Of a stretch of DNA of 64,000 nt, positions 41,682 through 61,195 are shown piece by piece. The DNA lies in assembly GCA_964508365.1 (NCBI GenBank), contig CAZDTP010000011.1, forward strand, positions 14,234-78,233. Direction: 5' to 3'. The stretch comes from an uncultured archaeon. Its GTDB lineage: Archaea; Asgardarchaeota; Lokiarchaeia; Sigyniarchaeales; SOKP01. Each line of letters opens with the position of its first letter. Position 1 is the first letter of the stretch. Made by a program: the position numbers and the translations under genes. The notes beneath the pieces are model-generated. The model did not search any database. It was not told the DNA's origin and saw only the letters and a program-made list of their open reading frames with translations.

Positions 41682-44003
41682 TCAAAGATAAATATCAATG
41701 TCTTTTTTAGGAAATACTTTTAAGATTTTCGGTAATTCTACTCCTAATCTTATCTTCTCACAGATTTCAACATAAATAGGGTAGAAATTATTAAGTATCT
41801 TGTATATTTCATTCCATGCCTTTTGTTCTTCCGTATTCTCACCAATCTGTTTCCTGAGTTTGGGAAATATAGCACTTGATTTATTCCGATTTAAAAATTT
41901 AAAAAATTGTTTCGTTACTTTTATTCTAATCTTTTCATATGCTTCTGGTCTAAAATTAGCGATGCTGTAACTTAAGTCATCGTCAGTAATGGGAAAGAAA
42001 TTGATACGCTTATCTTCAGGTTCATCTGGATTTTTCTCTAAACTTAATTCTAAATCTTTTGCTGCAATAATTTCCAATATGGGATAGAGTTGACCTGGAT
42101 TGATATGAGTTTCCATTTGAATCTGAGACGCGATTTCTGATATACAATAATGAAAATCGGGATATTTCTCTTGATTTTCAATCCGATAAGCATACTCTTT
42201 TTTTAATATATCGATGATATTATTTTTTAATATTTGAGGAATCTCTTTTTGAGTAAAAGAAATCGATGCATCCTTTTGCATTTGTTCAAAAGATAAATCA
42301 TCTTTTTGTTTTTTTGTATAATCCGAAGTTAAAGAAGAAATAAATTGATCCGAAGCTTTATTTTGGTTAGTATCAACATGTAAGTCGAGTTTTTTAGGTT
42401 TGTCTGATCTCATGGTTGTGAAGAGTCTATCGGACAGATATTTTTTTGCTTTCTTCTGTGCTAATTCTTTTTTATCGAACTTTTCGAGAATAGAAGTAAA
42501 GTCTACGAATTTTTGATATCGCCCTTGATCATCTTTTACATCTTTCAAAATAATATTCAAATTAATCTTCGATAGAGTACCAACCAAAGAATATATCTTA
42601 TTTTTAGAAAGCCTAGTAGCTCTAATCAACTCGCGATCTAAAATCTCTAGAGGAAAACCCTCCCCCCTTCGTAAATACTCGCTCCTTAAGAGTTTATAAA
42701 TTATATCCATAATCTCCTCTTCTTGATCTACCGTTTCTTTCTGCAAACGAATAAACATTGAAGTTTCATGTGGTTTTAAATAATAAAATAGCAGAGTACT
42801 CCCTAGGAAAATAATCATTATAATAGAGATAATAAACTTATCTGCCATGAAAAACTGTCCAAGGGGGGTAATTATCTGATTTGGAATTTGTGTCTGTAAA
42901 GCATAACGAGTAAGAGTTTGAGAAAGAACACAGCCTAAAATTAAAAGTATTAAACCATCTCTTTTAAAGATAAGAAGGTTCCATTCTATTGAACGCCCTA
43001 ATTTTTTGATGATTCTATACAGGAAATACATAGATACGGCAAATTCTAAAATAAATATAAACCATACTGTAGAACTACTCGCACCTACAGTCTCTTTTAG
43101 GGCGATTATAGTTGCTGGATTTAAAATTAAGAATAGTGATAACTGAAAGACTTGGAAGAAAAAGATAAATAAAACTATTAAAGAAAAAGTGAAGTTATCA
43201 AACAATCCGGCTCTCTTTGTCTCAGCTCTTCGTCGCGTAAATACAAATTCAAATATAATGAACAAGAGAGTTAAAATTAAACTAAAATATATTAAGGGCA
43301 TTATCAAACGCATTTCTAATTCATAAACTCCTACTGCTTCACTGGGAGCAAAAGGACCAAAAAAATCAAGAGAAATATAAACTAACAGACCACGGTAAAA
43401 CAGGGCTATTATAACTAATACTCCTAAAATAAAATATGGAGCAATGAAAGCTAAAAATCGTCGAAATCCAGAATATTTAGCAATAAACTTAGCCTCTATT
43501 TTAGTTGCAAACTTTCTGGAATACATGTAGAAGCGAATACTTAATAATAAAAGCCAGATTGTTGACAATCCTAATAGATAGCTTATTAAATTTGTGTTTA
43601 TATTATAGACATATAGGAAGAGAACAAAGAAACCCGAAATAATTCCAACATATAAAATAATCTGTTTAATACCTGAATGTTTTTCAAAAATGAATATTCT
43701 AATTTTATCAATGCTATATAATATAGATAATGCGAGAAAAAAAGCCACCAATGCGTTTCCAAAAACAAATGGGTTTCCAAAAGTAAGAACGTTTAAATAT
43801 GTACCTGGAAAATTTATCCCGACTAACAATAAAAAAGAATAGATCAAAAAAATAAAGTAAATTACAAAGAATTTTCTTTCTCCAAAGTATGATTTCGAAG
43901 TTTCTTTTCCTTCTACATAATGTTCTTGTATAAATATTTTACGAATGTTCTTTTGAAGAGAATCTTTTATCTTTGTTAGATTTTCTTTAGCATTCATTTT
44001 CAT
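41682..44003 (-). CDS. Polytopic membrane protein (about 10 TM) with a large cytoplasmic C-terminal region
   Basis: Hydrophobic segments over aa ~45-410, then about 360 aa of soluble sequence containing two wHTH-like segments. Confidence 0.75.
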   Translation of the reverse strand: MKMNAKENLTKIKDSLQKNIRKIFIQEHYVEGKETSKSYFGERKFFVIYFIFLIYSFLLLVGINFPGTYLNVLTFGNPFVFGNALVAFFLALSILYSIDKIRIFIFEKHSGIKQIILYVGIISGFFVLFLYVYNINTNLISYLLGLSTIWLLLLSIRFYMYSRKFATKIEAKFIAKYSGFRRFLAFIAPYFILGVLVIIALFYRGLLVYISLDFFGPFAPSEAVGVYELEMRLIMPLIYFSLILTLLFIIFEFVFTRRRAETKRAGLFDNFTFSLIVLFIFFFQVFQLSLFLILNPATIIALKETVGASSSTVWFIFILEFAVSMYFLYRIIKKLGRSIEWNLLIFKRDGLILLILGCVLSQTLTRYALQTQIPNQIITPLGQFFMADKFIISIIMIIFLGSTLLFYYLKPHETSMFIRLQKETVDQEEEIMDIIYKLLRSEYLRRGEGFPLEILDRELIRATRLSKNKIYSLVGTLSKINLNIILKDVKDDQGRYQKFVDFTSILEKFDKKELAQKKAKKYLSDRLFTTMRSDKPKKLDLHVDTNQNKASDQFISSLTSDYTKKQKDDLSFEQMQKDASISFTQKEIPQILKNNIIDILKKEYAYRIENQEKYPDFHYCISEIASQIQMETHINPGQLYPILEIIAAKDLELSLEKNPDEPEDKRINFFPITDDDLSYSIANFRPEAYEKIRIKVTKQFFKFLNRNKSSAIFPKLRKQIGENTEEQKAWNEIYKILNNFYPIYVEICEKIRLGVELPKILKVFPKKDIDIYL

Positions 44004-44106: not shown

Positions 44107-44457
44107 TTGTCATTCATAGCTGAAAATTTAAAAGGCTTCAATTATAATATAAATATGCAAATGGATAATCAGCCAGATAAACCAGATAAAGAAAACTTGA
44201 TAAAACTGGTCAAACAAGGCATTGAAATGTTAGCGGAAAGGAACATTTCGGATATGCTGATTTTGTCCTCATATAAAATAAATTCAGTGTTAAAAGATAA
44301 CTATGGTGTGGATATTAAGGTCGATAGAATTGGACGAATTCTGTCTTCTGTAGCAAAAAATAATCAATTAAAGCGATTAAAAACACAAATCCCTAAATAT
44401 CAATTGCATATATCGAAAGTTGGTAGACTTCAGTATCCTGAGTTGTCACCTTCGTGA
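44107..44457 (+). CDS. Hypothetical protein, possibly wHTH
   Basis: 116 aa; SSYKINSVLKDNYGVDIKVDRIGRILS resembles an HTH; TTG start. Confidence 0.55.
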   Translation: MSFIAENLKGFNYNINMQMDNQPDKPDKENLIKLVKQGIEMLAERNISDMLILSSYKINSVLKDNYGVDIKVDRIGRILSSVAKNNQLKRLKTQIPKYQLHISKVGRLQYPELSPS

Positions 44458-44552: not shown

Positions 44553-45935
44553 CTATTTCTTAATAATTCGAAAATCAGGAATTATTTTTTGTAATCTGTC
44601 AATTAACTTTTCAAGTTCTATAAAATTTTCGTTGAAATTTTCTAATTCTGAAATTAAATTATCCAAATTGGTAGTAATGTTTATTTCGAAGGGATGATTG
44701 ATAGCACTTATTCCTTTTAACATTTCAATAGAGAGATTTTCTATTTGATTCGTTAAATCTGAGATTTGTTTTGCTGAGTATTCAATTTTCTCTCTTGTGT
44801 TTGTGTCTAATTTTGATAGTTCGTATAGTTTATTAATAGATTCATTGAGCTCATCTTTTATAGACTTAGAGATATCACTGATACTTTGTTCTAAATATTC
44901 GCTAATTTCACTTTTTAAGATTTCACTAATCCCGTAGGTATTCGATTTTAATTCTTCTTGTCCCTCAAGACGTTTTCTTATGTATTCTTCCACTTTTTCC
45001 TTATATTCATCCAACCTTTCTTTAAATTTTAAGTCAATCCAATTTTCTACTTTTTCAAAACCCCTATTAATTCTGGAATTCATTTCTGATAGAGAGTTAT
45101 TTATTTTATCAAGACCTATTAAAGCTCCATCATTAAATTCCGTAGACCATAATTCCAATTCGGATTTATAATTATTCAAGACTAGGCTAGATAAATTCTG
45201 TAACCCTTTTTTAAACCCGTCTATAACCGGATTAATGTTAGGATAATTTATGTCGATTCTTGTATCAACTTGATCGACTGACTTCGGAATTTCTTGAAGA
45301 TCGCCTGGAATTCCTTCAATCGTCTCTAATCTCTCGCGTATTATATTTGGATCCTTTGCCTGACCATATTCAACAAGCTCTCGAACCCATCTGAAGAAGT
45401 CTAGGGATTTTGGCGTTTCTATTTCATATTTCACTCTAACAATTCCGCTTTTTTCGCCTAATTTGTGATTTTTTAATTGAAATACATCTAAACCTAAATG
45501 ATTGTTTTTTTTAAGTTTAGTGTGATCAAATACGATTCCAAATGCTAAGGAGTTTTGTTCATTTTGAAAGTATAAATGGTTCTTTTTATCAACATCTGAA
45601 AAGAAAAAAGAATCACTGTTGGGGTGTGAATGATACCAACCTACAACGGTAGGGTTCTCATCTTTAACTTCTTCTTTTATCTGCTCAAGTACTTTATGAA
45701 TCTTTTCTGAAAAACCTAATTCTACTTGATCACCGTGTGTAATGGGAATAGCTTTGATCACGTCAATATCATCGCTGTCAGGTTCTTTGTTTCCCAAACA
45801 AAATCCTAGAACTTGTTCATCGGAATCAAATATAGTATTAGCAAATCTTAATACATGAGTAAGAATATCTTTATACACACTCATTCGTATGAACACTTTA
45901 CCTTTTTCTCTAGTTTCAATTGTGCTCTCATTCAT
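44553..45935 (-). CDS. MPN/JAMM-domain protein with a long helical C-terminus (catalytic Glu position is Gln)
   Basis: QVLGFCLG and VVGWYHSHP-x7-SDVD; about 270 aa of amphipathic helical tail. Confidence 0.85.
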   Translation of the reverse strand: MNESTIETREKGKVFIRMSVYKDILTHVLRFANTIFDSDEQVLGFCLGNKEPDSDDIDVIKAIPITHGDQVELGFSEKIHKVLEQIKEEVKDENPTVVGWYHSHPNSDSFFFSDVDKKNHLYFQNEQNSLAFGIVFDHTKLKKNNHLGLDVFQLKNHKLGEKSGIVRVKYEIETPKSLDFFRWVRELVEYGQAKDPNIIRERLETIEGIPGDLQEIPKSVDQVDTRIDINYPNINPVIDGFKKGLQNLSSLVLNNYKSELELWSTEFNDGALIGLDKINNSLSEMNSRINRGFEKVENWIDLKFKERLDEYKEKVEEYIRKRLEGQEELKSNTYGISEILKSEISEYLEQSISDISKSIKDELNESINKLYELSKLDTNTREKIEYSAKQISDLTNQIENLSIEMLKGISAINHPFEINITTNLDNLISELENFNENFIELEKLIDRLQKIIPDFRIIKK

Positions 45936-45937
45936 CT

Positions 45938-47392
45938 CTATTCTTTACCTCCTTTTTCGAGTTCTTTGATTTTTAATAATAACTCTTTTTTCTCAGATTC
46001 CAATTTATCGATTTTTTCAAAGATGGGTGCTTTTGTTCCTTCCAAAATTAAAACTGCAGCTTTTAAGTTTGTTACAAACTTTTGAGAATTCTTTTGTAGA
46101 TCACTAATTGAATTCTTTATTAAGCCATGCTTCTTCGATGTAAGATCTGAGGTTTCTTTTTGCATTCTTTTTATCTTTTCGAGTGTAGCGTCTTTTATCG
46201 TAATTATTTTATCAGATAAAATATTTAATGAATTTTCTAATTTTTCGAGATTCTCGAGATTAGTAGTTAGATTTCCATTGAGATTCATTATTTTACTGCT
46301 CCATTCGTCGTGATCTTTTGAGAAATCATTTTTTAATGCTTCAAATTTCTCCTTAAATGAAATATTTAGTTTCTCTTGAACGAATTCTTCTATTTCTCTC
46401 AAAATTTTTCCTATCTCATCATGATATACATCTATTTGGTCTAGAAAGTCGTCAACATAACCTTCTGCGTTAAACAATTCAGAATTTAAATCGTCTTTAT
46501 ATTTCCTTTGTATTTTATCAATTCCAGAGTTCACTAAATTTTTTAATTGAGATAAATTGTTTCTGATTTCAATGTTGTTATTCTCAATTTCTCCCGAAAT
46601 GTTTTTTGATATCGAATTTAAATAGTTAATCAAGGGTGTTAAAGATAAATCTATAAAGTTAGAAAGACCGATTTGAACTGATTCAATAATTTTATGTTGA
46701 TCTATTTCAGGTTGCTTAAACCTTAATTGATTCAATTCAGGGACTTGAACATCACCAAAGATATCAGCTGTTTCGTTTTCTTCTGTAATAGGGGGCTCAT
46801 TTGAATATACACAATTAATTAGATCAACAATTTTAAAATAATACTCTAAATCGTTAGGAGGTTCAACAATAGCCTTCACATCGTGAACACTCGAATCCCT
46901 GATATCTGTTGGATTAGTTAATCTAATAGCCTTAAATCCCAGATCATCTGGATGTTCCAAATATGCGTGGTCAAAAACTAGTGCTATTCCACTTGGATTC
47001 AATTCATTTTGCCAACCGAATTGATTTTTTACATCCGTAGGCGAAAAGAAAATCTTGTGCTGGAATAACAGAGGATGTGAATGATACCAGCCCACAATAA
47101 AAAATCCTTTATCGTAGTACATCGAATTAGCTTTTTCAAAGAAAATATAATCGTTAATCGAGAATTCTACTTCTACGCTACTCCCATGAGAGATTGGTAC
47201 GGAATCTTCAATTACGACATTCTTAAACTTCTTATCTTCGCCATCTTCGAGGTGCCCAATAAGCACTCCCATTACTTCGATACACTGAGAATGATTTCGA
47301 GCCTTGTTTCCAAAACGTAATACATGTAACACCATTTTATAATAAGCAAGTGGCTTTATCTTTACAACGCTATTATCTATATCTTTACCCAA
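45938..47392 (-). CDS. MPN/JAMM-domain protein with a long helical C-terminus
   Basis: EVMGVLIG, IVGWYHSHP-x9-SPTD, GIALVFD; helical tail; 2 bp from the next gene. Confidence 0.88.
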   Translation of the reverse strand: MGKDIDNSVVKIKPLAYYKMVLHVLRFGNKARNHSQCIEVMGVLIGHLEDGEDKKFKNVVIEDSVPISHGSSVEVEFSINDYIFFEKANSMYYDKGFFIVGWYHSHPLLFQHKIFFSPTDVKNQFGWQNELNPSGIALVFDHAYLEHPDDLGFKAIRLTNPTDIRDSSVHDVKAIVEPPNDLEYYFKIVDLINCVYSNEPPITEENETADIFGDVQVPELNQLRFKQPEIDQHKIIESVQIGLSNFIDLSLTPLINYLNSISKNISGEIENNNIEIRNNLSQLKNLVNSGIDKIQRKYKDDLNSELFNAEGYVDDFLDQIDVYHDEIGKILREIEEFVQEKLNISFKEKFEALKNDFSKDHDEWSSKIMNLNGNLTTNLENLEKLENSLNILSDKIITIKDATLEKIKRMQKETSDLTSKKHGLIKNSISDLQKNSQKFVTNLKAAVLILEGTKAPIFEKIDKLESEKKELLLKIKELEKGGKE

Positions 47393-47640: not shown

Positions 47641-48327
47641 TTAATGGGGTAGTGGTTTGCCGCAGTAAGGACAGAATTTCCAGTCTAAATCTTTCCCACA
47701 ATGAGGACAAAAAGTGGAAGAACCAGTTGTAGAGTTATCAGGCGTAACATATTCTACACCCTCTCCTTTTGGGATTGGAGGTAAACTTTTGGTAGTTTTT
47801 AGCGTCGATGGTGCTTGTTGACTTGCTTGAGCTCTTTTTTCTTCCTTAACATACTTCATCCTCTCTTGAAATGCTTGGCGTTTTTCGTCTTCTAATTCTT
47901 GATTTGACTTCATGCCCTCTTCTTTTACCCATCCTGTTGCTGCTGGTCTCTTCATTTCGCTTTCTGGAACTTTTTCTAATTCAACTTCTTTAGCTTCAGA
48001 AATCGGGGCTATAACTTTTTTTTCTTCTTTATTAGTAATAGCCTGCTTAGTTAATGCGTGAGTAGTTTTCATAATTTGGTGGGGATTTATATTTGGAATT
48101 GCTACTGTTCTCAGCACCCATCCCACTATGAGATTTTGGTTAGGAAAACCAGAAGCGCTCATATCTTCTTCTTTAAAAACATAGGAATCAATAACATCTT
48201 TGCCTTTTAGTAAACGGATAGCCCATTTATCGTTTATAAGCCCTAATTGAATCCTATACGAAGTTCCAGGAATCCCTAGTTGACTACTTAGAGGTTCAAA
48301 TCCTTGTTTAGAAATAATTACATCAAC
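47641..48327 (-). CDS. Hypothetical protein with a C-terminal double zinc ribbon; 5' end extends beyond the track's ATG
   Basis: The frame is open from 48327 (VDVIISKQGFEPLSSQLGIPGTSYRIQLGLINDKWAIRLLKG...) through ATG48162, then a low-complexity linker, then CPHCG..CPYCG. No ATG/GTG/TTG lies in the 55-codon extension, so the start is uncertain. Confidence 0.65.
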   Translation of the reverse strand, partial: VDVIISKQGFEPLSSQLGIPGTSYRIQLGLINDKWAIRLLKGKDVIDSYVFKEEDMSASGFPNQNLIVGWVLRTVAIPNINPHQIMKTTHALTKQAITNKEEKKVIAPISEAKEVELEKVPESEMKRPAATGWVKEEGMKSNQELEDEKRQAFQERMKYVKEEKRAQASQQAPSTLKTTKSLPPIPKGEGVEYVTPDNSTTGSSTFCPHCGKDLDWKFCPYCGKPLPH

Positions 48328-48549: not shown

Positions 48550-49496
48550 ATGACTGTATTTATTCCCAAAAATGTTTATTTGACCATCGTTGCTGCATGT
48601 GGTAGGTATGCCAATAAACGAATTGATAAAGACGATTGGCTTGAGGTTAATGGTATATTGGAAGAAATGAAGGAAACGATGTATATATTACAAAAACGTA
48701 TCCCATAATGCATCAAGAACTGGATAAGGATGCTGTTATTGATCAATATAAATGGAGTATCGAAGATTATGAAACTTTTTCTATTATTGATGACGAAGCC
48801 TTTTCAAATGGTGAATTTACAGTAGGATGGTGGCACAGTCATCCTGGATTCAAGATTATGATGTCCCATATTGATATCAAAACTACTCTGAGTTATCAAA
48901 CAAATAATCCTCTTGCTGTTTCATTAGTGTTTAATCCTGATAGATTAGTGAGACAAGTTGAACTTCCTGACAAAAAAGGTGATCCAGTAAAACAACTTGA
49001 GGGCGATCCTGGATTTAAAATATTTAGACTAGATGATGTAAATAAAGGAATTCAAGCGTCCTATCATACTGTAGATTATATTGTTGAAGGTTTCGATACC
49101 AGGGAGCAATTAGTAACATTAACTCAGAAATTTTTAATTGATATTACTATCATGTTTCCAAAAGACAATATATTTGAAACATATGAAAAGTTCGTAAATG
49201 ACCGAATTAACGAGTTAAATTCACTTATTCAAGGAACGGATGAATATTTAAGTACACTTATGAGAAAAGGAGAATCTGGCAGGGTGTACGAGGTATTAGA
49301 AAATCAGACTCGAGATATTAGAAAATTTGTTGCTGAAACATTCGTCAAAATCGAGAACATTAAACAATTTATGGAATTTTTAGAGTATAAAGAGCGAGAT
49401 ATCGTTATCCCTAAAATAAAAGAAATAATGTCTAAATGGGATGAAACTATTGAACACCTAAATGAAACGCTTACAGAGATAGCTAAAAAGTATTAA
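48550..49496 (+). pseudogene. Third MPN/JAMM gene, split by a frameshift near 48658-48660 (pseudogene or assembly error)
   Basis: ATG48550 gives MTVFIPKNVYLTIVAACGRYANKRIDKDDWLEVNGIL and stops at 48706-48708. The -1 frame from 48660 gives GRNEGNDVYITKTYPIMHQE...VGWWHSHPGFKIMMSHID (canonical H-x-H-x7-S-x2-D). Confidence 0.8.
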
Positions 49497-49625: not shown

Positions 49626-51833
49626 ATGCGTAAAGTTCAATTTCCTTTTGTTGCTATTTTAGGGCAAGAAAGAATGAAACTCGGTCTTATATTAAACGTT
49701 ATCGATCCTCAAATTGGTGGAGTATTGTTAACTGGACAACAAGGAACCGGTAAATCTACAGGAGTACGATCTCTTGTAGAAGTCATGCCTGATATTGAAG
49801 TTGTTAAAGATTGTCAGTTTTCGTGTAATCCAAAATCTCATATAGATGATCTTTGCGAAGAATGCCGCGTAAGAAAAGAAAAGGGAGAAATAGAAACTGA
49901 ATCTAAAGAAATGAGGCTCATTAACCTTCCTTTAGGCGTAACCGAAGATATGGTCACAGGATCTCTATCTATAGATAAGGTTTTAACTGAAGGGATCAGG
50001 AGTCTTCACCCTGGACTTCTTGCTAAGGCTAATCGTGGTATTCTTTATATTGATGAGATAAATCTGCTTCAGGATCATATAGTCGATACCTTATTAGATG
50101 CTTCTGCTTCGGGAGTGAATATTATCGAAAGGGAAGGAATTTCGGTTATACATCCCTCTCGGTTTATATTAGTGGGTAGTATGAACCCCGAAGAAGGCGA
50201 TCTTCGCCCACAAATTGCTGATAGGCTAGGTTTAGAGGTAAAAATAAAAGCTCCAAGAGATGCAAAACTACGTGCTGAAATTACTAAAAGAGTAATTGAT
50301 TTTGATGATAATCCTAAAGCATTCATAAAAAAATACGAGCAAGAGCAAGAAGAATTAAGAAAGAAAATCGTTAAAGCCCGTGAAATAATTAAAGATGTTC
50401 AAATTCCATCATCGGTCTATGAATTTGTATCTAAGCTTGTAAATGAATTGGATATTTTCTCACAGAGAGCAGATATTACTTTTATTCGGTGTGCTAGAGC
50501 CCACGCTGCTTTAAAGGGAAGAACTGAAGTTGTAGAAGAAGATTTAAACGCAGCAATGGATTTAGTTTTCGAACACAGGATAAGGTCGCTTCATTACGAA
50601 ATGACGCCACAAGAAGTCAAAGCAAAAATAGTTGAAGTTTACGGGAAGATACAAAAAGCCTACGAGGATCCAAAAACCTATAGGCCAAATAAAGAAACTG
50701 AAGGACCTTTGAAGCATGACGATACACCGCAAAAGGAATTCAAACGTCAATCAGTTGATCCTAAAAAAGTCGATATCCCGGAAACAAAAGAACAGAAGTT
50801 ACCTGCACCCAAATACCCAGATAATAAGAAACGGAACCCTTCTCCTGCTGGAGGTTGGAAAGTAAAAGATATACCAGAATATGACAAACGAGAATTTAAA
50901 TTTTTTGAAACAGGAAACGAATCGCTACCATTAATTTATAAAATGGAAGCCAAAATGACCTCCGTATTGGATAATATCAGAAAAGATAGAAAAGTTTCGG
51001 ATTATGGCGGTAGAGGAATTGGAAGGCGCATAAAAATCGCTTCTTCTCAAAAAGGTAGATATGTATCGTATAGAAGACCCGTTAATCGACCCAAAACTAT
51101 TGCTCTCGACGCAACCATACGGAATTATTTAAAAAATACGATATACAACCAAACAGATATTGAATTTCCTATTAAATTTGACAAATACGATTTAATGGAT
51201 AAAATTTACGAGTATCGAGCTCCTTTAGTACTTTTCTTTGTTCTCGATAGCTCAGCTTCAATGTATTATGTAATCAAACAAATGACGGATGTTATTCTTT
51301 CTCTCCAACGTGAAGGCTACAGAAAAAAGGATAAAATAAGTTTAATAATTTTTAGAGCGAAAGAAGCAGTTGTTCTTCAGACGCCTACCGTTTACTTTAA
51401 ATCTGCTGTAAACAAACTCAAAAAAGTTGAAGGTAAGTCTTATACTCCTATGGCCGCAGCTTTGACAAAATGCTTAAAATTGATTGATGCTGAAAAGCTA
51501 AAGAATAGAAACATAATTCCGGTCGTTTTTGTTTGTAGCGATTTAGGAGCGAATATTTCCTACAAATACCCCGATTTGATCGCTCAAATCCAAACAGATT
51601 ACACTTTAATCGTTAATGAATTAGAAGCGTTAACAAAACAACTCTCGAAAAAAGGAGCACATATGGTGGTGTTAGAACCTAAGAAATCATATGCTACAAG
51701 GGCGTTAGGAGTTAACACATTTGCAGCAGATCAGATAAAAAGGAATTTTAAAAAATATGGAAACGCTGAAATATTCCAATTCGATAGAGTGAATCCTAAA
51801 AACTTGATTTTAGAATTAAAGAAAATTCTATAG
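49626..51833 (+). CDS. Mg-chelatase ChlI/ChlD-like AAA+ ATPase fused to a VWA domain
   Basis: FPFVAILGQ, GQQGTGKS, PGLLAKANRGILYIDEINLL, GSMNPEEGDLRPQ; Pro/charged linker; MIDAS LDSSAS. Confidence 0.88.
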   Translation: MRKVQFPFVAILGQERMKLGLILNVIDPQIGGVLLTGQQGTGKSTGVRSLVEVMPDIEVVKDCQFSCNPKSHIDDLCEECRVRKEKGEIETESKEMRLINLPLGVTEDMVTGSLSIDKVLTEGIRSLHPGLLAKANRGILYIDEINLLQDHIVDTLLDASASGVNIIEREGISVIHPSRFILVGSMNPEEGDLRPQIADRLGLEVKIKAPRDAKLRAEITKRVIDFDDNPKAFIKKYEQEQEELRKKIVKAREIIKDVQIPSSVYEFVSKLVNELDIFSQRADITFIRCARAHAALKGRTEVVEEDLNAAMDLVFEHRIRSLHYEMTPQEVKAKIVEVYGKIQKAYEDPKTYRPNKETEGPLKHDDTPQKEFKRQSVDPKKVDIPETKEQKLPAPKYPDNKKRNPSPAGGWKVKDIPEYDKREFKFFETGNESLPLIYKMEAKMTSVLDNIRKDRKVSDYGGRGIGRRIKIASSQKGRYVSYRRPVNRPKTIALDATIRNYLKNTIYNQTDIEFPIKFDKYDLMDKIYEYRAPLVLFFVLDSSASMYYVIKQMTDVILSLQREGYRKKDKISLIIFRAKEAVVLQTPTVYFKSAVNKLKKVEGKSYTPMAAALTKCLKLIDAEKLKNRNIIPVVFVCSDLGANISYKYPDLIAQIQTDYTLIVNELEALTKQLSKKGAHMVVLEPKKSYATRALGVNTFAADQIKRNFKKYGNAEIFQFDRVNPKNLILELKKIL

Positions 51834-51876: not shown

Positions 51877-53124
51877 ATGGATTTAAAAGAAATTTCAGTT
51901 TTAGTTGCTGGATTTAACACCCGGCCGTTAGTTTATTCCTTAAGCAGAGCGGGATACAAAGTATATGCGGTTGATTTCTTTGGTGATTTAGACCTTTATC
52001 CTTATGTTAAAGACTGCTTAATTCTTACTAAGAAATTAAACGTAAACTATGAATTAGTTAAAAATAATTATAGTGAATACCTCCCCCTTTTAATTTTGGA
52101 ACTTTTAGGCAAGTATCCTGAAATCGGAAACCTGATTATTGGAAGTGGTTTAGACGACCATATAGAAGAGAGAGCTCTTATTTTAAAAGAGATAAAACGA
52201 GAGAAGTACAATATTCATAACCTTAATAACGAATTAGAAGTGATTAAAAAAAGCCGAAATATCGAATTCATTTTAAATTGTTTAAAAAAAAAAGGTTACG
52301 ACGTACCACTAACAGTTTCATTCGATGATTTTAAATCCGACTTTAACAAGTTAGAATATCCAATTATTTTAAAGAAGAAGAGTGGTTCTGGTGGAACAAA
52401 TGTGTATAAAATACAAAATAAATTCGATCTCGCTTTCACCATCAACCTTATTAGTAAAGGAACCTTTGAACCAAAAGATTGGCTGATTCAGGAATATATC
52501 GAGGGGAATCCAGTTAGCTGTACGACAATATCTAATGGAATTGAAAGTAATTTAATTTCGGTAAATCATCAGATAATTGGAGATAAGTATCTTAATGCTC
52601 CAAAAGAATTTATGTATTGCGGAAATGTTGTTCCTGCTAATGTATTCGCAGAAGAAAAAGAACTGATAGTTGATATTTCGTTGAAACTATCAGCCGAGTT
52701 AGGTTTAAAGGGAATAAATGGATTCGATTTCGTGCTAAGAAACCACTATCCATATTTAATGGAGATCAATCCCCGAATTCCAGGATCAATTAGAGCTTCT
52801 GAAGAGGCAATGAACATAAATTTATTAGATTTGCATATAAAGAGTTTTACAGACAAGGGATGGGAATTCGTTAAAAAGACGCTGAAGGATGCGAAAATCG
52901 AAAATTTTACAACCAAGATGATTTTCTTTGCTCCTAAAGAAATCAATAAAAATCTATTAAATAAAATCAACGACTTGGAATATATTCACGATAAGTCAGA
53001 ATCAGTTAAGAACATTTATAAAAGCGAACCAGTTTGTACTATTTTATTTAAGGCTAAATCTTTTTCTGAATCTTATTTAGGTAGCTTAAAAGTAGTAGAT
53101 AAGATAAAGCAGATAATTAAATAG
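51877..53124 (+). CDS. ATP-grasp family ligase
   Basis: AGYKVYAVDFFGDLDL, PIILKKKSGSGG, LIQEYIEG, GINGFDF and EINPRIPGS. Confidence 0.82.
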   Translation: MDLKEISVLVAGFNTRPLVYSLSRAGYKVYAVDFFGDLDLYPYVKDCLILTKKLNVNYELVKNNYSEYLPLLILELLGKYPEIGNLIIGSGLDDHIEERALILKEIKREKYNIHNLNNELEVIKKSRNIEFILNCLKKKGYDVPLTVSFDDFKSDFNKLEYPIILKKKSGSGGTNVYKIQNKFDLAFTINLISKGTFEPKDWLIQEYIEGNPVSCTTISNGIESNLISVNHQIIGDKYLNAPKEFMYCGNVVPANVFAEEKELIVDISLKLSAELGLKGINGFDFVLRNHYPYLMEINPRIPGSIRASEEAMNINLLDLHIKSFTDKGWEFVKKTLKDAKIENFTTKMIFFAPKEINKNLLNKINDLEYIHDKSESVKNIYKSEPVCTILFKAKSFSESYLGSLKVVDKIKQIIK

Positions 53125-57124: not shown

Positions 57125-60100
57125 ATGGGTGAGAATAATTTGAGTCCTATAAAAAAATCAAATTTAAATATAAATGAGTTATTCAAATCAGAAGAAAAGC
57201 TTACTTTCTTAGTTGGAGCAGGAGTTTCAGTTGATTCACCGTCTCAATTGCCTTCAGCTAGTAATATGATGAAAGCACTAATTAAGTTTTCCTGTACTAG
57301 ATCTGAGGGTGAAAAAATTCTAAGCATTCAAGAATTAAGCTTTGAGACCTTATTAGGGATAATACATAATTCGCTCCATGATGATTTTACATTTTTAGAT
57401 TTTTATTTGGAAAGCGATAAACCTAATATCGAACATTTTGTTTTAGGTGAAATGCTCAAAAAAGGACATTATGTTATAACAACAAACTTTGATTCTTTAA
57501 TAGAGCATGCTCTACTTCAAACAGACTATCCTAAAAAAAAAATAGTTCCAGTTATTACTGAAAGAGATTACCAAAAGTTCAGTGATCCAGAAAAATTGTA
57601 TAAAAATAAAAGAATTCCCATTTACAAACTTCACAGCTCTCCCAAAAATATAATCACCGGAGAAGATACCCGTGAGTCTTTTATTAATACCTTAAAGCTA
57701 ATTGGATCAAACCAAGATAAGAACAATATCATTCAGTTAGAGCCGTTCAAAGCTCAAATGATAGAACGGATTTCAAATGAACGTACACTGATAATTATGG
57801 GGTACTCAGGAAAAAATGATAATGATCTTATTTCAACTCTTAAAACTATGAAAGCATTGAAAAACTTGATATGGATCAATCATAATGCAAACAGTAAAAC
57901 TAAAGGAGACCTCTATGAATATAACAAACCCGAGAACAGGGATTTAAGCAGTTTGGATGATTTAGATCAACAACTTATGGAAATTAAAAGATTAAATGGT
58001 TCTGTTAACATATTTCGGTTAAACACTAATACACCTAAATTTCTGGAGAATCTTCTAGATAAAAAAGAGGAAATCAGTAAGGAAAAATTTGAATTGAAGT
58101 TAGCCGATTGGCTTAAGGATAAACTTAATGAACCCTCCGAATTAACCAAGCTATATATCTCTAATAAGATTTATTTTGAAACTAAGAATTATATCGACGC
58201 TCTCCGGTGTTTGGAGAGAATATATCAGTTAAGTGATGAATCTGGAGATAACCATTGGAAAGCAATATCTCTAATGGAAATGGGGATAGTTAACTATGAA
58301 CAATCAAATTATGGGGACGCATTAGATTGGTTACGCAAATCTTTACAAGTTCAAATTAAATCGAAATTAATGCCGGAACGGGCGTTGATTTTTAAATACA
58401 TCGGCTTTGTGCATCAAGCACAGAGAGAATATTCCGATGCGATAAAAAATTTTGATTTAGCACTGAAGGAAATTGAAAAAAATAAAGATCTCAAACAAAT
58501 GTCAGATATATACAACAATCTAGGCTTAATTTATCAAGAACAACATAAATATGAAGAGGCTTTGATGAATTTCGAATCAGCAATAAAAATTAATGAGAAA
58601 TTTGAAAATCTTAGTAAAAAAGCATTAAATTTGAAGCTTAAGGGGAGAATCTATTATTTAAAAAAAGATTTTAGCGAAGCTTTAAAGTACCTTCAAACCG
58701 CATTAAAAATTTCCGAACAATTAGAAGATATCGAACAAAAAGCAGAGATTTTGAATATAATTGGACGATTAACTCATGAAATTGGAGATTCTCTCACTGG
58801 GTTGGAGAAATGTAATGAATCACTTAAGCTTTACAAACTTTTAGGTGGAATTGAAGGAGAGTTGGATGCCTTAAACGCTATAGGAATAATTTATAGGGAT
58901 CAATGGAATTATGTTAAAGCATTTGATTACTTTGAAGAAGGATTTCAAATTGCTGAGAGTTTAGGAAATGTGTATTTAAAGGCTAAATTTATGTGCCAAA
59001 TAGGGACTATTTTTCAAAATCAGAATAAATACTTTGATGCGCTAAAATGGTTTGAAGATTCTTTAAACTTTTTTAACCAGATTGGAGATATTCGAGGAGA
59101 AGTTGATGTTCTTATAAAGATGGGACTAATTTACAAGGAACAAAAAGTATACTTAAAAGGGTTAAAGAAGTTCGAGAAAGCTCTGCAAATATATAATCAA
59201 CTAGAAGATTTAAACAATAAAGCTTCCACTTTGATTGCTCTTGGACAAATTTTTCTCGATCAAAGAAACTTTTCAGAAGCATTTAAAAACTTCCAGGAAG
59301 CTCTTCAGCTTTACGGGATAACTGATAATCCTGAGGGGACAGCTGATACTTTAAAAAACATTGGGAATCTCTATGCTGAACAAGCTAATTTTCAAGAGGC
59401 ATTAAACAGATATAATGATGCTCTAGTAATTGTTATAGACATTGGAAAAACTGAAAAAAAAGCAGATCTTCTTAACCGGATGGGAGTAATTTTTCAAGAT
59501 CAAGGCGATTATCCTCAAGCTAAACAGAAGTTCGAAGAAGCATTAGATCTCTATAGAAATCAGAACAATATGGAGGGGCAAATTGAAAGTCTTCATTTAA
59601 TTGGAATAAATTATCATTATGTAGAAGAAAATGATATAGCCTTAAAGATGATTGAAGAAGCTATAAGAATATCTGAACAAATCGGTAATTTATATAAGAA
59701 AGCAATGTGCTTAAAAATAACTGGCAAGATTTATCGGGAACAATGGGATTTAATAGAGGCTTTAAAGCGCTACGAAGAGGCGTTATTGATTGCAGATCAA
59801 CTAGGGCATTTAGAAGAACAAGTGGAAATTCTTAGTATTATAGGAGAAATATATCAAGCTCAGAAGCATTATCCCGAAGCGGTAAGAAGATATAATGAAG
59901 CAATCTATGTCGCAGAAAGTTTAGGTAACCTTGAAATTAAAGCCGATATCTTTGCGAGCATAGGGGATATCTATTACGACGAGGATAAATATCTTGAAGC
60001 ACTAAACTTGTACGAAGAAGCTTTAAATATCGACGAACAACTAGGAAATATGAAGGGAAAGGCGTATAGGCTACTTAGCATCGGAAATATATTCTTTGTC

Positions 60101-61195
60101 AGTAAAAAATACAAGGAAACATTGGATAGATACAAAGAAGCTCTAGAGCTTGAGGAACAACTAGGAAATCTTACAAACCAAGCGATTATTATACGAAAGA
60201 TTGGAGATATTTTTAAGGCTCAAGAGCATTTTCAAGAAGCATTAAAGTGGTATCAACAAGCATACAAGCTTTTTGATGAAATTGAAAACTTAGAAGGAAT
60301 TGCAGATTGCTTTGAGAGTATTGGATTAGTGTATCAAGAATTAGATAATTATTCTGAAGCGCTAAAGTGGAACAGTGAAGCACTTAAAATAACTGATCAA
60401 ATTTATGACGACGAGAGGAAAGCTCGAATCTTATGTACTATAGGTGCTCTTTTTCATAAACAGGGTGTGTATAAAGATGCGTTTAAACGCTATAATATCG
60501 CCCTCGATCTATTTGATAAAGTAGGAGATTTAATAGGGAAAACATATTGTTTAAATAAGGTAGGCCTTGTATACCAAGATAAAGGAGATTATATAGAGGC
60601 TCTTAAATGGTACGATCGAGGAACAAAACTCTTTAAAGTATTAGGACCTTCAAGTGAAAAAGCAGAGAATTTGTATAATACCGCAATGATCTATAGAGAT
60701 CAAGGATTATATCTTGACGCTTTGAAAAGCTTTGAAGAATCTCTCAATATTGATAATGAGCTTCAAAATTTCACCAGAAAGGCAGAAAGTCTTAATAACA
60801 TTGGATTAATTTATCTTGATGAGGGCAATTATCCGGTTGCATTAAAACGCTTTGAAGAAGCTAATCAAATAGCTGAAAAAAGCGAAAATAGACAATCCAA
60901 CGCGAAATACTTAAATAATATTGGTTCATCACTTCTTTATCAAGGAAAATACACCGAAGCATGGAAAAAAAGCACCCAAGCCCTTAAAATTTACGAAGAT
61001 CTTGAAAATAATGTAGGAATAGCTGATTCTTATTACAAATTAGGGTTGAATTATCTAGAACAAAAATCTTACGCTGAAGCGTTAAAAAATCATCAAGATG
61101 CCTTAAACATTCTAATTCAAATTGGCTCTGAAAAATTACCAATCGTGAAAGTTCTTAGAAACAACATAAAAATGATCAAGACTAAAATGAAATAA
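57125..61195 (+). CDS. SIR2-like domain plus 25 tandem 40-aa TPR units
   Basis: FLVGAGVS, ITTNFD, YKLHSS and IMGYSG..D motifs in aa ~20-260, then an uninterrupted 40-aa repeat (A-x3-IG-x-IY-x3-G-x-Y-x-EAL-x2-Y-x2-AL) to the C-terminus. Confidence 0.9.
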   Translation: MGENNLSPIKKSNLNINELFKSEEKLTFLVGAGVSVDSPSQLPSASNMMKALIKFSCTRSEGEKILSIQELSFETLLGIIHNSLHDDFTFLDFYLESDKPNIEHFVLGEMLKKGHYVITTNFDSLIEHALLQTDYPKKKIVPVITERDYQKFSDPEKLYKNKRIPIYKLHSSPKNIITGEDTRESFINTLKLIGSNQDKNNIIQLEPFKAQMIERISNERTLIIMGYSGKNDNDLISTLKTMKALKNLIWINHNANSKTKGDLYEYNKPENRDLSSLDDLDQQLMEIKRLNGSVNIFRLNTNTPKFLENLLDKKEEISKEKFELKLADWLKDKLNEPSELTKLYISNKIYFETKNYIDALRCLERIYQLSDESGDNHWKAISLMEMGIVNYEQSNYGDALDWLRKSLQVQIKSKLMPERALIFKYIGFVHQAQREYSDAIKNFDLALKEIEKNKDLKQMSDIYNNLGLIYQEQHKYEEALMNFESAIKINEKFENLSKKALNLKLKGRIYYLKKDFSEALKYLQTALKISEQLEDIEQKAEILNIIGRLTHEIGDSLTGLEKCNESLKLYKLLGGIEGELDALNAIGIIYRDQWNYVKAFDYFEEGFQIAESLGNVYLKAKFMCQIGTIFQNQNKYFDALKWFEDSLNFFNQIGDIRGEVDVLIKMGLIYKEQKVYLKGLKKFEKALQIYNQLEDLNNKASTLIALGQIFLDQRNFSEAFKNFQEALQLYGITDNPEGTADTLKNIGNLYAEQANFQEALNRYNDALVIVIDIGKTEKKADLLNRMGVIFQDQGDYPQAKQKFEEALDLYRNQNNMEGQIESLHLIGINYHYVEENDIALKMIEEAIRISEQIGNLYKKAMCLKITGKIYREQWDLIEALKRYEEALLIADQLGHLEEQVEILSIIGEIYQAQKHYPEAVRRYNEAIYVAESLGNLEIKADIFASIGDIYYDEDKYLEALNLYEEALNIDEQLGNMKGKAYRLLSIGNIFFVSKKYKETLDRYKEALELEEQLGNLTNQAIIIRKIGDIFKAQEHFQEALKWYQQAYKLFDEIENLEGIADCFESIGLVYQELDNYSEALKWNSEALKITDQIYDDERKARILCTIGALFHKQGVYKDAFKRYNIALDLFDKVGDLIGKTYCLNKVGLVYQDKGDYIEALKWYDRGTKLFKVLGPSSEKAENLYNTAMIYRDQGLYLDALKSFEESLNIDNELQNFTRKAESLNNIGLIYLDEGNYPVALKRFEEANQIAEKSENRQSNAKYLNNIGSSLLYQGKYTEAWKKSTQALKIYEDLENNVGIADSYYKLGLNYLEQKSYAEALKNHQDALNILIQIGSEKLPIVKVLRNNIKMIKTKMK

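Follow-up and report, generated by a model that had tools for sequence, protein, structure and literature searches.

The stretch of DNA analysed here, hereafter the window, covers 64,000 nucleotides (nt) of an uncultured archaeon of the Lokiarchaeia (GenBank assembly GCA_964508365.1, 4.07 Mb in 149 contigs; positions 14234-78233 of contig CAZDTP010000011.1, or C11), and its closest database proteins carry the source labels Lokiarchaeota or Promethearchaeota. We focused on two adjoining genes of its minus strand, B and, downstream of it, A, each encoding an MPN/JAMM domain followed by a helical tail of ~220 residues (Table 1). An initial annotation of this DNA had described them as neighbouring paralogues sharing a series of motifs, and this description holds. 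The stop codon of B and the ATG of A are separated by 2 nt, the two proteins align by BLASTP at 27% identity over 401 columns (E = 1e-28), with a match extending past the MPN domain into the tails, and all the motifs quoted as shared were found in both. The TTG start of B aligns with a Met in relatives. Both proteins match the Pfam family JAB (PF01398) above its cut-off (E 1.6e-10 for A and 1.5e-13 for B), as does the product of a third MPN gene of the locus, C.

The active sites of the two paralogues differ in one essential residue. As first annotated, A carries Gln at the catalytic Glu position: Gln41 aligns with Glu39 of B and with residue 48 of yeast Rpn11, the first of EVMGLMLG (phmmer match to PDB chain 3jck_G), and Glu40 stands one residue before it. 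The zinc ligands are kept in both proteins, as H102, H104 and D116 in A, accompanied by S113, and as H104, H106 and D120 in B, which with S117 and E39 possesses the full catalytic set. The catalytic Glu of the JAMM motif is thus missing from A and present in B and in the C proteins of relatives. In the JAMM enzymes studied, replacement of this Glu by Gln or Ala abolishes activity. The published motif, EXnHS/THX7SXXD, places 7 residues between the second His and the Ser (PMC300881), a spacing extended to 8 in A and to 10 in B. The longer spacing of B reflects a 3-residue insertion (..LFQHK..) between its His-x-His and Ser, restricted to the window clade (17 genomes of the same genus) and genome G058, the other B orthologues having the canonical spacing; this zinc-loop insertion co-occurs with the Gln form of A.

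Of 150 genomes of the class queried with A, 149 gave a match. The locus was then taken from 117 genomes, its open reading frames (ORFs) were sorted by BLAST against A, B, C and the zinc-ribbon gene Z located upstream of B, and the five catalytic columns were read from a MAFFT alignment. Across the 13 genera of family f1, Glu-His-His-Ser-Asp was kept in all 104 whole copies of B, in only 36 of the 112 whole copies of A, and in 66 of the 68 whole copies of C, the remaining two having Thr for Ser (EHHTD). Where A and B were both whole (104 genomes), an intact B accompanied an altered A in 70 cases and an intact A in 34, and an altered B was never observed. The 76 altered copies of A represented 28 distinct patterns, spread over at least 10 separate clades of the A tree, each with different substitutions. 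Glu was replaced by Gln at least four times and also by Ala, the second His by Arg, the first His by Ile, Val, Leu, Ser or Cys, and the Asp by Thr, Glu, Gly or Ala. In every f1 locus with both genes whole, B was directly followed by A, mostly at 15 nt or less and sometimes with an overlap.

The conservation of Gln itself proved to be a matter of scale. Family-wide, the Glu column of A contained Glu in 82 of the 112 copies, Gln in 24 and other residues (Ala, Asp, Lys or Asn) in 6, so that orthologues mostly carry Glu, which the initial annotation had named as a refutation of its proposal. The underlying idea was nevertheless strengthened, because in 46 of these 82 Glu-retaining copies a His, the Ser or the Asp is gone instead. 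At shorter range Gln is well conserved: A carries [Glu/Asp]-Gln in the 17 genomes of the window clade, with the remaining motif residues kept, apart from one genome in which Ala replaces Ser, and among the 98 close database homologues of A, 90 of the 91 that cover the motif have [E/D]-Q, the last one (P0023) having E-E. At the catalytic position, Glu stands in 20 of the 22 homologues that are more distant, and Ala in the other two. A tandem pair with two intact copies is also present in the sister family f2; its downstream member clusters with A (support 1.00), indicating that the duplication is older than the decay of A and that this decay was later and repeated. Repeated decay of this kind is the pattern that would be expected of a subunit whose own catalysis became dispensable.

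Despite these substitutions, A has been retained. Within the window clade, the ratio of nonsynonymous to synonymous substitution rates (dN/dS) had a median of 0.13 for A (0.19-0.24 in close pairs) and of 0.105 for B (0.13-0.14 in close pairs), and no broken copy of A was found in this clade; values well below 1 indicate that A is maintained by purifying selection, under a constraint slightly looser than that acting on B. The two genes also diverged jointly. Over 60 genomes with all four genes whole, the pairwise distances of A and B were correlated at r = 0.95, and their partial correlation controlling for C and Z was 0.89, the other five partial correlations ranging from -0.05 to 0.27. Between the window clade and the rest of its genus, identity fell to 34% for A and 41% for B, with 65% for C and 70% for Z. 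A and B thus appear to evolve as a unit, and this coupled divergence would support a functional unit, short of proving contact. A transfer of the B-A pair into the window clade was considered but not supported: a full-length tree puts A beside other genera, but a tree restricted to the MPN domain returns it as sister to the other copies of its genus (support 0.95), and fast evolution is the simpler account.

An AlphaFold2 model of A, built from a 75-sequence alignment, comprises an MPN domain (residues 1-192, with a predicted local distance difference test score, pLDDT, of about 90), a low-confidence linker (208-260) and one continuous helix (238-459). In Foldseek searches the MPN domain of A was nearest to Rpn11 (4o8x_B, E 1.7e-11), then to BRCC36, CSN5 and CSN6, with the Rpn11 homologue of Caldiarchaeum lower. 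The hydrophobic period of both tails was 3.62 residues (family-wide interquartile range 3.61-3.62), and the power observed at this period was reached by 0 of 300 shuffles for either protein. Such a period describes a straight amphipathic stripe and not a classical heptad, which fits either a near-untwisted pair of helices or a helix lying on a surface, and a single helix of 220 residues, as modelled in A, would have to bury its hydrophobic stripe against a partner or a surface. A conserved acidic and Pro-containing motif also follows the MPN domain of A (residues about 201-217, with invariant E201, L213, I216 and P217), and a similar motif, E..E...F/P-G-D..Q.P, occurs in B (residues about 203-217). 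Conserved, yet located in a segment that is disordered in the model of A, it looks like a docking motif for a partner.

From these results, we lean with moderate confidence towards B being an active enzyme and A a catalytically impaired tandem partner acting as a pair with it. B would be an active JAMM/MPN+ metallo-isopeptidase, and A a tandem paralogue that does not need its own catalysis, with its general-base Glu changed here to Gln and its zinc site kept. One transcript would give Z, then B, then A. The two MPN proteins would then pair, their heads side by side and their long, amphipathic C-terminal helices lying against one another. A would serve B as a scaffold, as an allosteric partner or by holding the substrate, in a role that would parallel those of Rpn8, CSN6 and Abraxas/KIAA0157 for Rpn11, CSN5 and BRCC36. 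The likely substrates would be conjugates of ubiquitin-like proteins encoded elsewhere in the genome. What the data show directly is the paralogy, the states of the catalytic residues, the f1-wide asymmetry between the two active sites, the purifying selection on A and the correlated divergence of the two genes; we infer the loss of activity in this A, the physical pairing and the substrate.

The main rival to this pairing of an active B with an impaired A is that both proteins are active, the general base of A having shifted to Glu/Asp40, or Gln supporting a reduced rate, in which case A and B would be co-transcribed isoenzymes with different substrate preferences. The acid at position 40, present in 90 of the 91 close homologues where other lineages have Val, Ile or Lys, would be explained in this way, as would the purifying selection on an A that keeps all its zinc ligands and Ser, and the fully canonical state of A in 36 of the 112 f1 copies. 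It is nonetheless improbable, since the 46 Glu-keeping copies that have lost ligands indicate that the system as a whole can do without catalysis by A, since Gln occurs without a preceding acid in four other lineages of A (QQ, KQ, TQ and SQ/YQ), and since Glu to Gln or Ala changes abolish activity in the JAMM enzymes studied.

Alternatively, A could act without B, as a non-catalytic binder (a substrate trap or receptor) of ubiquitin-like proteins, forming homo-oligomers or bound to a membrane or lipid surface by way of an apolipoprotein-like amphipathic helix, its adjacency to B being a relic of duplication. Replacement of Glu by Gln with an intact zinc site is a classic route to keep binding and lose turnover, and tails with a period of 3.62 instead of 3.5, with weak matches to apolipoproteins, would suit a surface-bound protein. 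We hold this unlikely in view of the tight coupling of A and B divergence after control for C and Z, of the order and spacing kept in all loci examined, and of the same period and related conserved linker motif in both tails. That the Gln is a sequencing error, or A a functionless decaying pseudogene, would draw on the substitution itself and on the frameshift carried by the neighbouring gene C in the same assembly, and is extremely improbable given that Gln recurs in the 17 window-clade genomes and 90 of 91 close homologues, with the ORF whole in all and dN/dS well below 1.

Several observations weigh against an active B paired with an inactive A. The conserved Glu/Asp40 preceding Gln41 might assume part of the general-base role, A of the window clade retains both His, the Ser and the Asp, and the close homologue P0023 has Glu at the catalytic position itself; with the zinc ligands kept and an acid conserved before Gln, some residual activity of the window A is possible. 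The canonical A of 34 of the 104 genomes also implies that the pair functions with both sites intact and that an inactive A is not a requirement of the system. Concerning the tails, their period departs from the 3.5 of a classical coiled coil, that of B weakly matches apolipoprotein A-I (E 0.0038) and distant homologues carry precomputed matches to the apolipoprotein family PF01442, so that the tails might sit on lipid or another surface instead of on each other. Joint recombination or a shared local rate of adjacent genes could likewise produce the coupled divergence, in a correlation whose data points come from related genomes and are non-independent. Finally, the A-B pair adjoins no ubiquitin, E1 or E2 gene, and the ubiquitin-type clusters of contigs C3 and C31 have their own JAB genes.

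The remark of the initial annotation that no ubiquitin, E1 or E2 gene is visible in the window extends to the whole of its contig, on which none was found. Ubiquitin, E1 and E2 matches lie on contigs C1, C3, C6, C12, C31 and C83, three of which bear clusters (Table 1). The genome contains seven JAB matches, and the four located outside the window all have canonical motifs. MPN paralogues with long non-MPN tails were also observed on contigs C7 (400 amino acids) and C76 (528 amino acids).

In a sample of the phylum, 34 of 121 genomes matched B, including 15 of 15 from f1. Among the genomes searched, the full-length tailed form was confined to f1 and to a small number of relatives from its order; the matches of B in other Asgard families were limited to the MPN domain, in proteins of 224-330 amino acids, and a library of 1.84 billion proteins yielded 302 relatives of B at E <= 0.001. 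In an MPN tree of archaeal sequences, the duplication giving A and B lies inside Lokiarchaeia. The initial annotation had suggested a prokaryotic counterpart of the eukaryotic active/inactive MPN heterodimers. The contrasted fates of the two active sites give good support to the active/inactive half of this idea. The long-tailed pair, found only in f1 and close kin, would probably be a parallel invention and not the ancestor of the eukaryotic pairs.

To our knowledge, every well-studied eukaryotic MPN deubiquitinase complex associates an active subunit with a dead paralogue, and the origin of this design is unsettled. The closest parallel is provided by BRCC36 with KIAA0157 or Abraxas (the core of BRISC and BRCA1-A), which likewise combines an intact and an altered MPN paralogue with helices after the MPN domain, and BRCC36 chains 6gvw_B and 6h3c_B are among the best fold matches of A. 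In the structure of its heterodimer, BRCC36 is an MPN+ enzyme that requires the paralogous MPN- pseudo-enzyme KIAA0157 for activity, the post-MPN helices of the two packing into a shared coiled-coil helical bundle (PMC4579573). The Lokiarchaeia proteins differ by tails that are far longer (~220-250 residues, forming one helix in the model of A) and have the 3.62 period, by the zinc ligands that A keeps in the window clade, and by a putative A-B pair that is lineage-specific in Lokiarchaeia and not orthologous to the BRCC36 pair.

Rpn11-Rpn8 and CSN5-CSN6 are also pairs of active and inactive MPN paralogues, and of the eukaryotic proteins Rpn11 matches A and B best, in structure as in sequence. 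Unlike these systems, the window has no PCI-domain partner (a genome-wide search was not made), and the A-B pair is not linked to genes of the proteasome; the motif is wholly lost from Rpn8 and CSN6, while A lacks here the Glu only. The Rpn11 homologue of Caldiarchaeum subterraneum (CsRpn11), a eukaryotic-type JAMM from an archaeon, gives A and B alike their best PDB sequence match (6fju/6fjv, E 5.6e-7 to 2.4e-6). CsRpn11 and the Asgard Rpn11-like JAMMs of ubiquitin operons are, however, short proteins that occur singly, next to genes for ubiquitin, E1 and E2, a type represented here by the genes of contigs C3 and C31, whereas the A-B pair combines long tails with a decaying twin and has no gene of the ubiquitin system as a neighbour. 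We found no description of such an MPN pair in archaea in the literature searched, and as of 2018 archaea were not known to have an organisation of the Rpn11-Rpn8 type (PMC6043591).

It is conceivable, although we would stop short of calling it probable, that Lokiarchaeia independently invented a long-tailed MPN+/MPN- heterodimer whose dead partner is caught in all stages of decay, beginning with both sites intact, passing through loss of the general base alone, as in this window, and ending with loss of the zinc ligands, and gene C of ten relatives may additionally carry the first bulge-helix-bulge intron in a protein-coding region outside crenarchaeal cbf5. If true, this would offer a natural series for studying the emergence of pseudo-enzyme partners such as Rpn8, CSN6 and Abraxas and the reason why a dead subunit is kept. 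With more than 100 genomes in which one copy stays unchanged and the other repeatedly loses its site in different ways yet is kept, the origin of a pseudo-enzyme would become directly testable. It would also imply that Asgard archaea, which possess ubiquitin, E1, E2 and Rpn11-like genes, built a more elaborate MPN machinery than the known single operon-encoded protease.

Table 1. Positions of the genes and features discussed in the text, within the window or on the contig or locus named; for the inserts in gene C, the stretch of the locus in which the insert occurs.
Feature	Location	Positions	Strand	Description
Gene B	window	45938..47392	-	Upstream member of the pair; 484 amino acids; TTG start; MPN/JAMM domain and helical tail
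Insertion in B	window	47035-47083	-	3 residues between His-x-His and Ser
Post-MPN motif of B	window	46740-46790	-	Similar to the motif of A
Gene A	window	44553..45935	-	Downstream member of the pair; 460 amino acids; ATG start; MPN domain with Gln41, long helix
Gln41 codon of A	window	45815..45813	-	Position of the catalytic Glu
Glu40 codon of A	window	45818..45816	-	Codon preceding Gln41
Post-MPN motif of A	window	45300-45330	-	Conserved acidic/Pro motif
Gene Z	window	47641..48315	-	Upstream of B, between C and B; ~224 amino acids; C-terminal zinc ribbon
Gene C	window	48550..49496	+	Third MPN paralogue; divergent from Z; frame broken in the window
4-base deletion in C	window	48656/48657	+	Relative to seven relatives (DNA alignment)
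AAA+-VWA gene	window	49626..51833	+	Downstream of C; fused ChlI/ChlD-like; putative cobaltochelatase
ATP-grasp ligase gene	window	51877-53124	+	Downstream of the chelatase gene
1356-amino-acid ORF	window	57125-61195	+	Further downstream of C
773-amino-acid protein	window	41682-44003	-	Multi-pass membrane protein; downstream of A
116-amino-acid ORF	window	44107-44457	+	Downstream of A
Ubiquitin-type cluster	contig C3	61637-66726		JAB gene, E2, E1, two ubiquitin-like genes
Ubiquitin-type cluster	contig C31	13557-15452		JAB gene, E1, E2-like gene
Ubiquitin-type cluster (E1 and E2)	contig C6	43580-46365		
Insert in gene C	L096	4748-4822		Genus g2
Insert in gene C	L087	4845-4919		Genus g2
Insert in gene C	L083	4856-4930		Genus g2
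Insert in gene C	L061	4814-4888		Genus g2
Insert in gene C	L084	4821-4895		Genus g2
Insert in gene C	L088	4740-4814		Genus g2
Insert in gene C	L051	4791-4865		Genus g2
Insert in gene C	L080	1711-1785	-	Genus g2
Insert in gene C	L042	1827-1901	-	Genus g2
Insert in gene C	L078	1769-1843	-	Genus g2

Beside the pair stand two neighbours absent from the initial annotation, the zinc-ribbon gene Z and the third MPN gene C. In Z, a charged linker joins a conserved N-terminal domain of ~95 residues to a C-terminal zinc ribbon (CxxC...CxxC); the gene is conserved across f1 and sits between C and B in most f1 loci. Judging from its orthologues, its start is most likely the ATT at 48315..48313, which precedes the first ATG (48162) by ~50 conserved codons. 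The start column of 85 orthologues contains TTG (33), ATG (29), ATT (10), GTG (9), ATA (2) and CTG (2), the window having ATT. An AlphaFold2 model gives its N-terminal region as a beta-beta-beta-alpha-alpha domain (pLDDT about 80), for which Foldseek returned no PDB match at E <= 0.001, and only the zinc ribbon of Z was recognised in Pfam, NCBIfam and the protein atlas. No NCBIfam family exceeded its cut-off for A, B, C, Z, the 773-amino-acid membrane protein or the 116-amino-acid ORF, and the last two had no Pfam match either.

In relatives, C is one ORF of ~315 amino acids that combines a complete JAMM motif with a ~130-residue helical tail. In the window, a 4-base deletion just after the catalytic Glu motif shifts its frame, making it either a real pseudogene or the product of an assembly error. 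C forms a separate, older clade of the MPN tree, and the chelatase gene stays beside it even in genus g4, where C lies ~20 kb from Z-B-A; C travels with the chelatase gene and not with Z-B-A, and is thus not counted in the pair. The chelatase protein is 61-93% identical across the family, with a cobaltochelatase match below the NCBIfam cut-off. A role of this AAA+-VWA protein as a proteasome-like partner, with a VWA domain as in Rpn10, was considered and set aside, the protein being a putative cobaltochelatase of ChlI/ChlD type that accompanies C in g4, and its gene is probably not part of the MPN pair.

A further observation concerns gene C of ten genomes of genus g2, which contains an insert of 30-32 nt at one site, between the HSHPGF and KVMMSH codons (Table 1). 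The insert brings stops or a change of frame, and the flanking parts stay whole and conserved. Its repetition as a mobile element was examined and rejected: the core was single-copy in the three genomes that had a pattern match, and a search of five genomes found it nowhere else. Insert and flanks could form a 4-bp helix between exon GG[C/U]U and insert A[G/A][C/U]U, beyond which lie a 3-nt bulge and a hairpin on the 5' strand and an AAA/AGA bulge on the 3' strand. The archaeal splicing endonuclease cuts after the second bulge nucleotide on each side, and cutting at these positions restores the reading frame in all ten genomes. In the alignment of the inserts, 87% of cells pair and six pairs are changed on both sides, values reached by 0 of 500 shuffles, a covariation that supports the helices; the hairpin beside the helix fits poorly in four of the ten (G042, G046, G075 and G094), and the outer exon-exon helix is weak. 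According to PMC7714728, the known substrates of this endonuclease other than tRNA and rRNA were limited to the crenarchaeal cbf5 mRNA and one 5' untranslated region of Haloferax. The insert would represent a candidate splicing-endonuclease intron within an Asgard protein-coding region, the alternative being a gene split into two polypeptides with a restart at the Met-Met codons.

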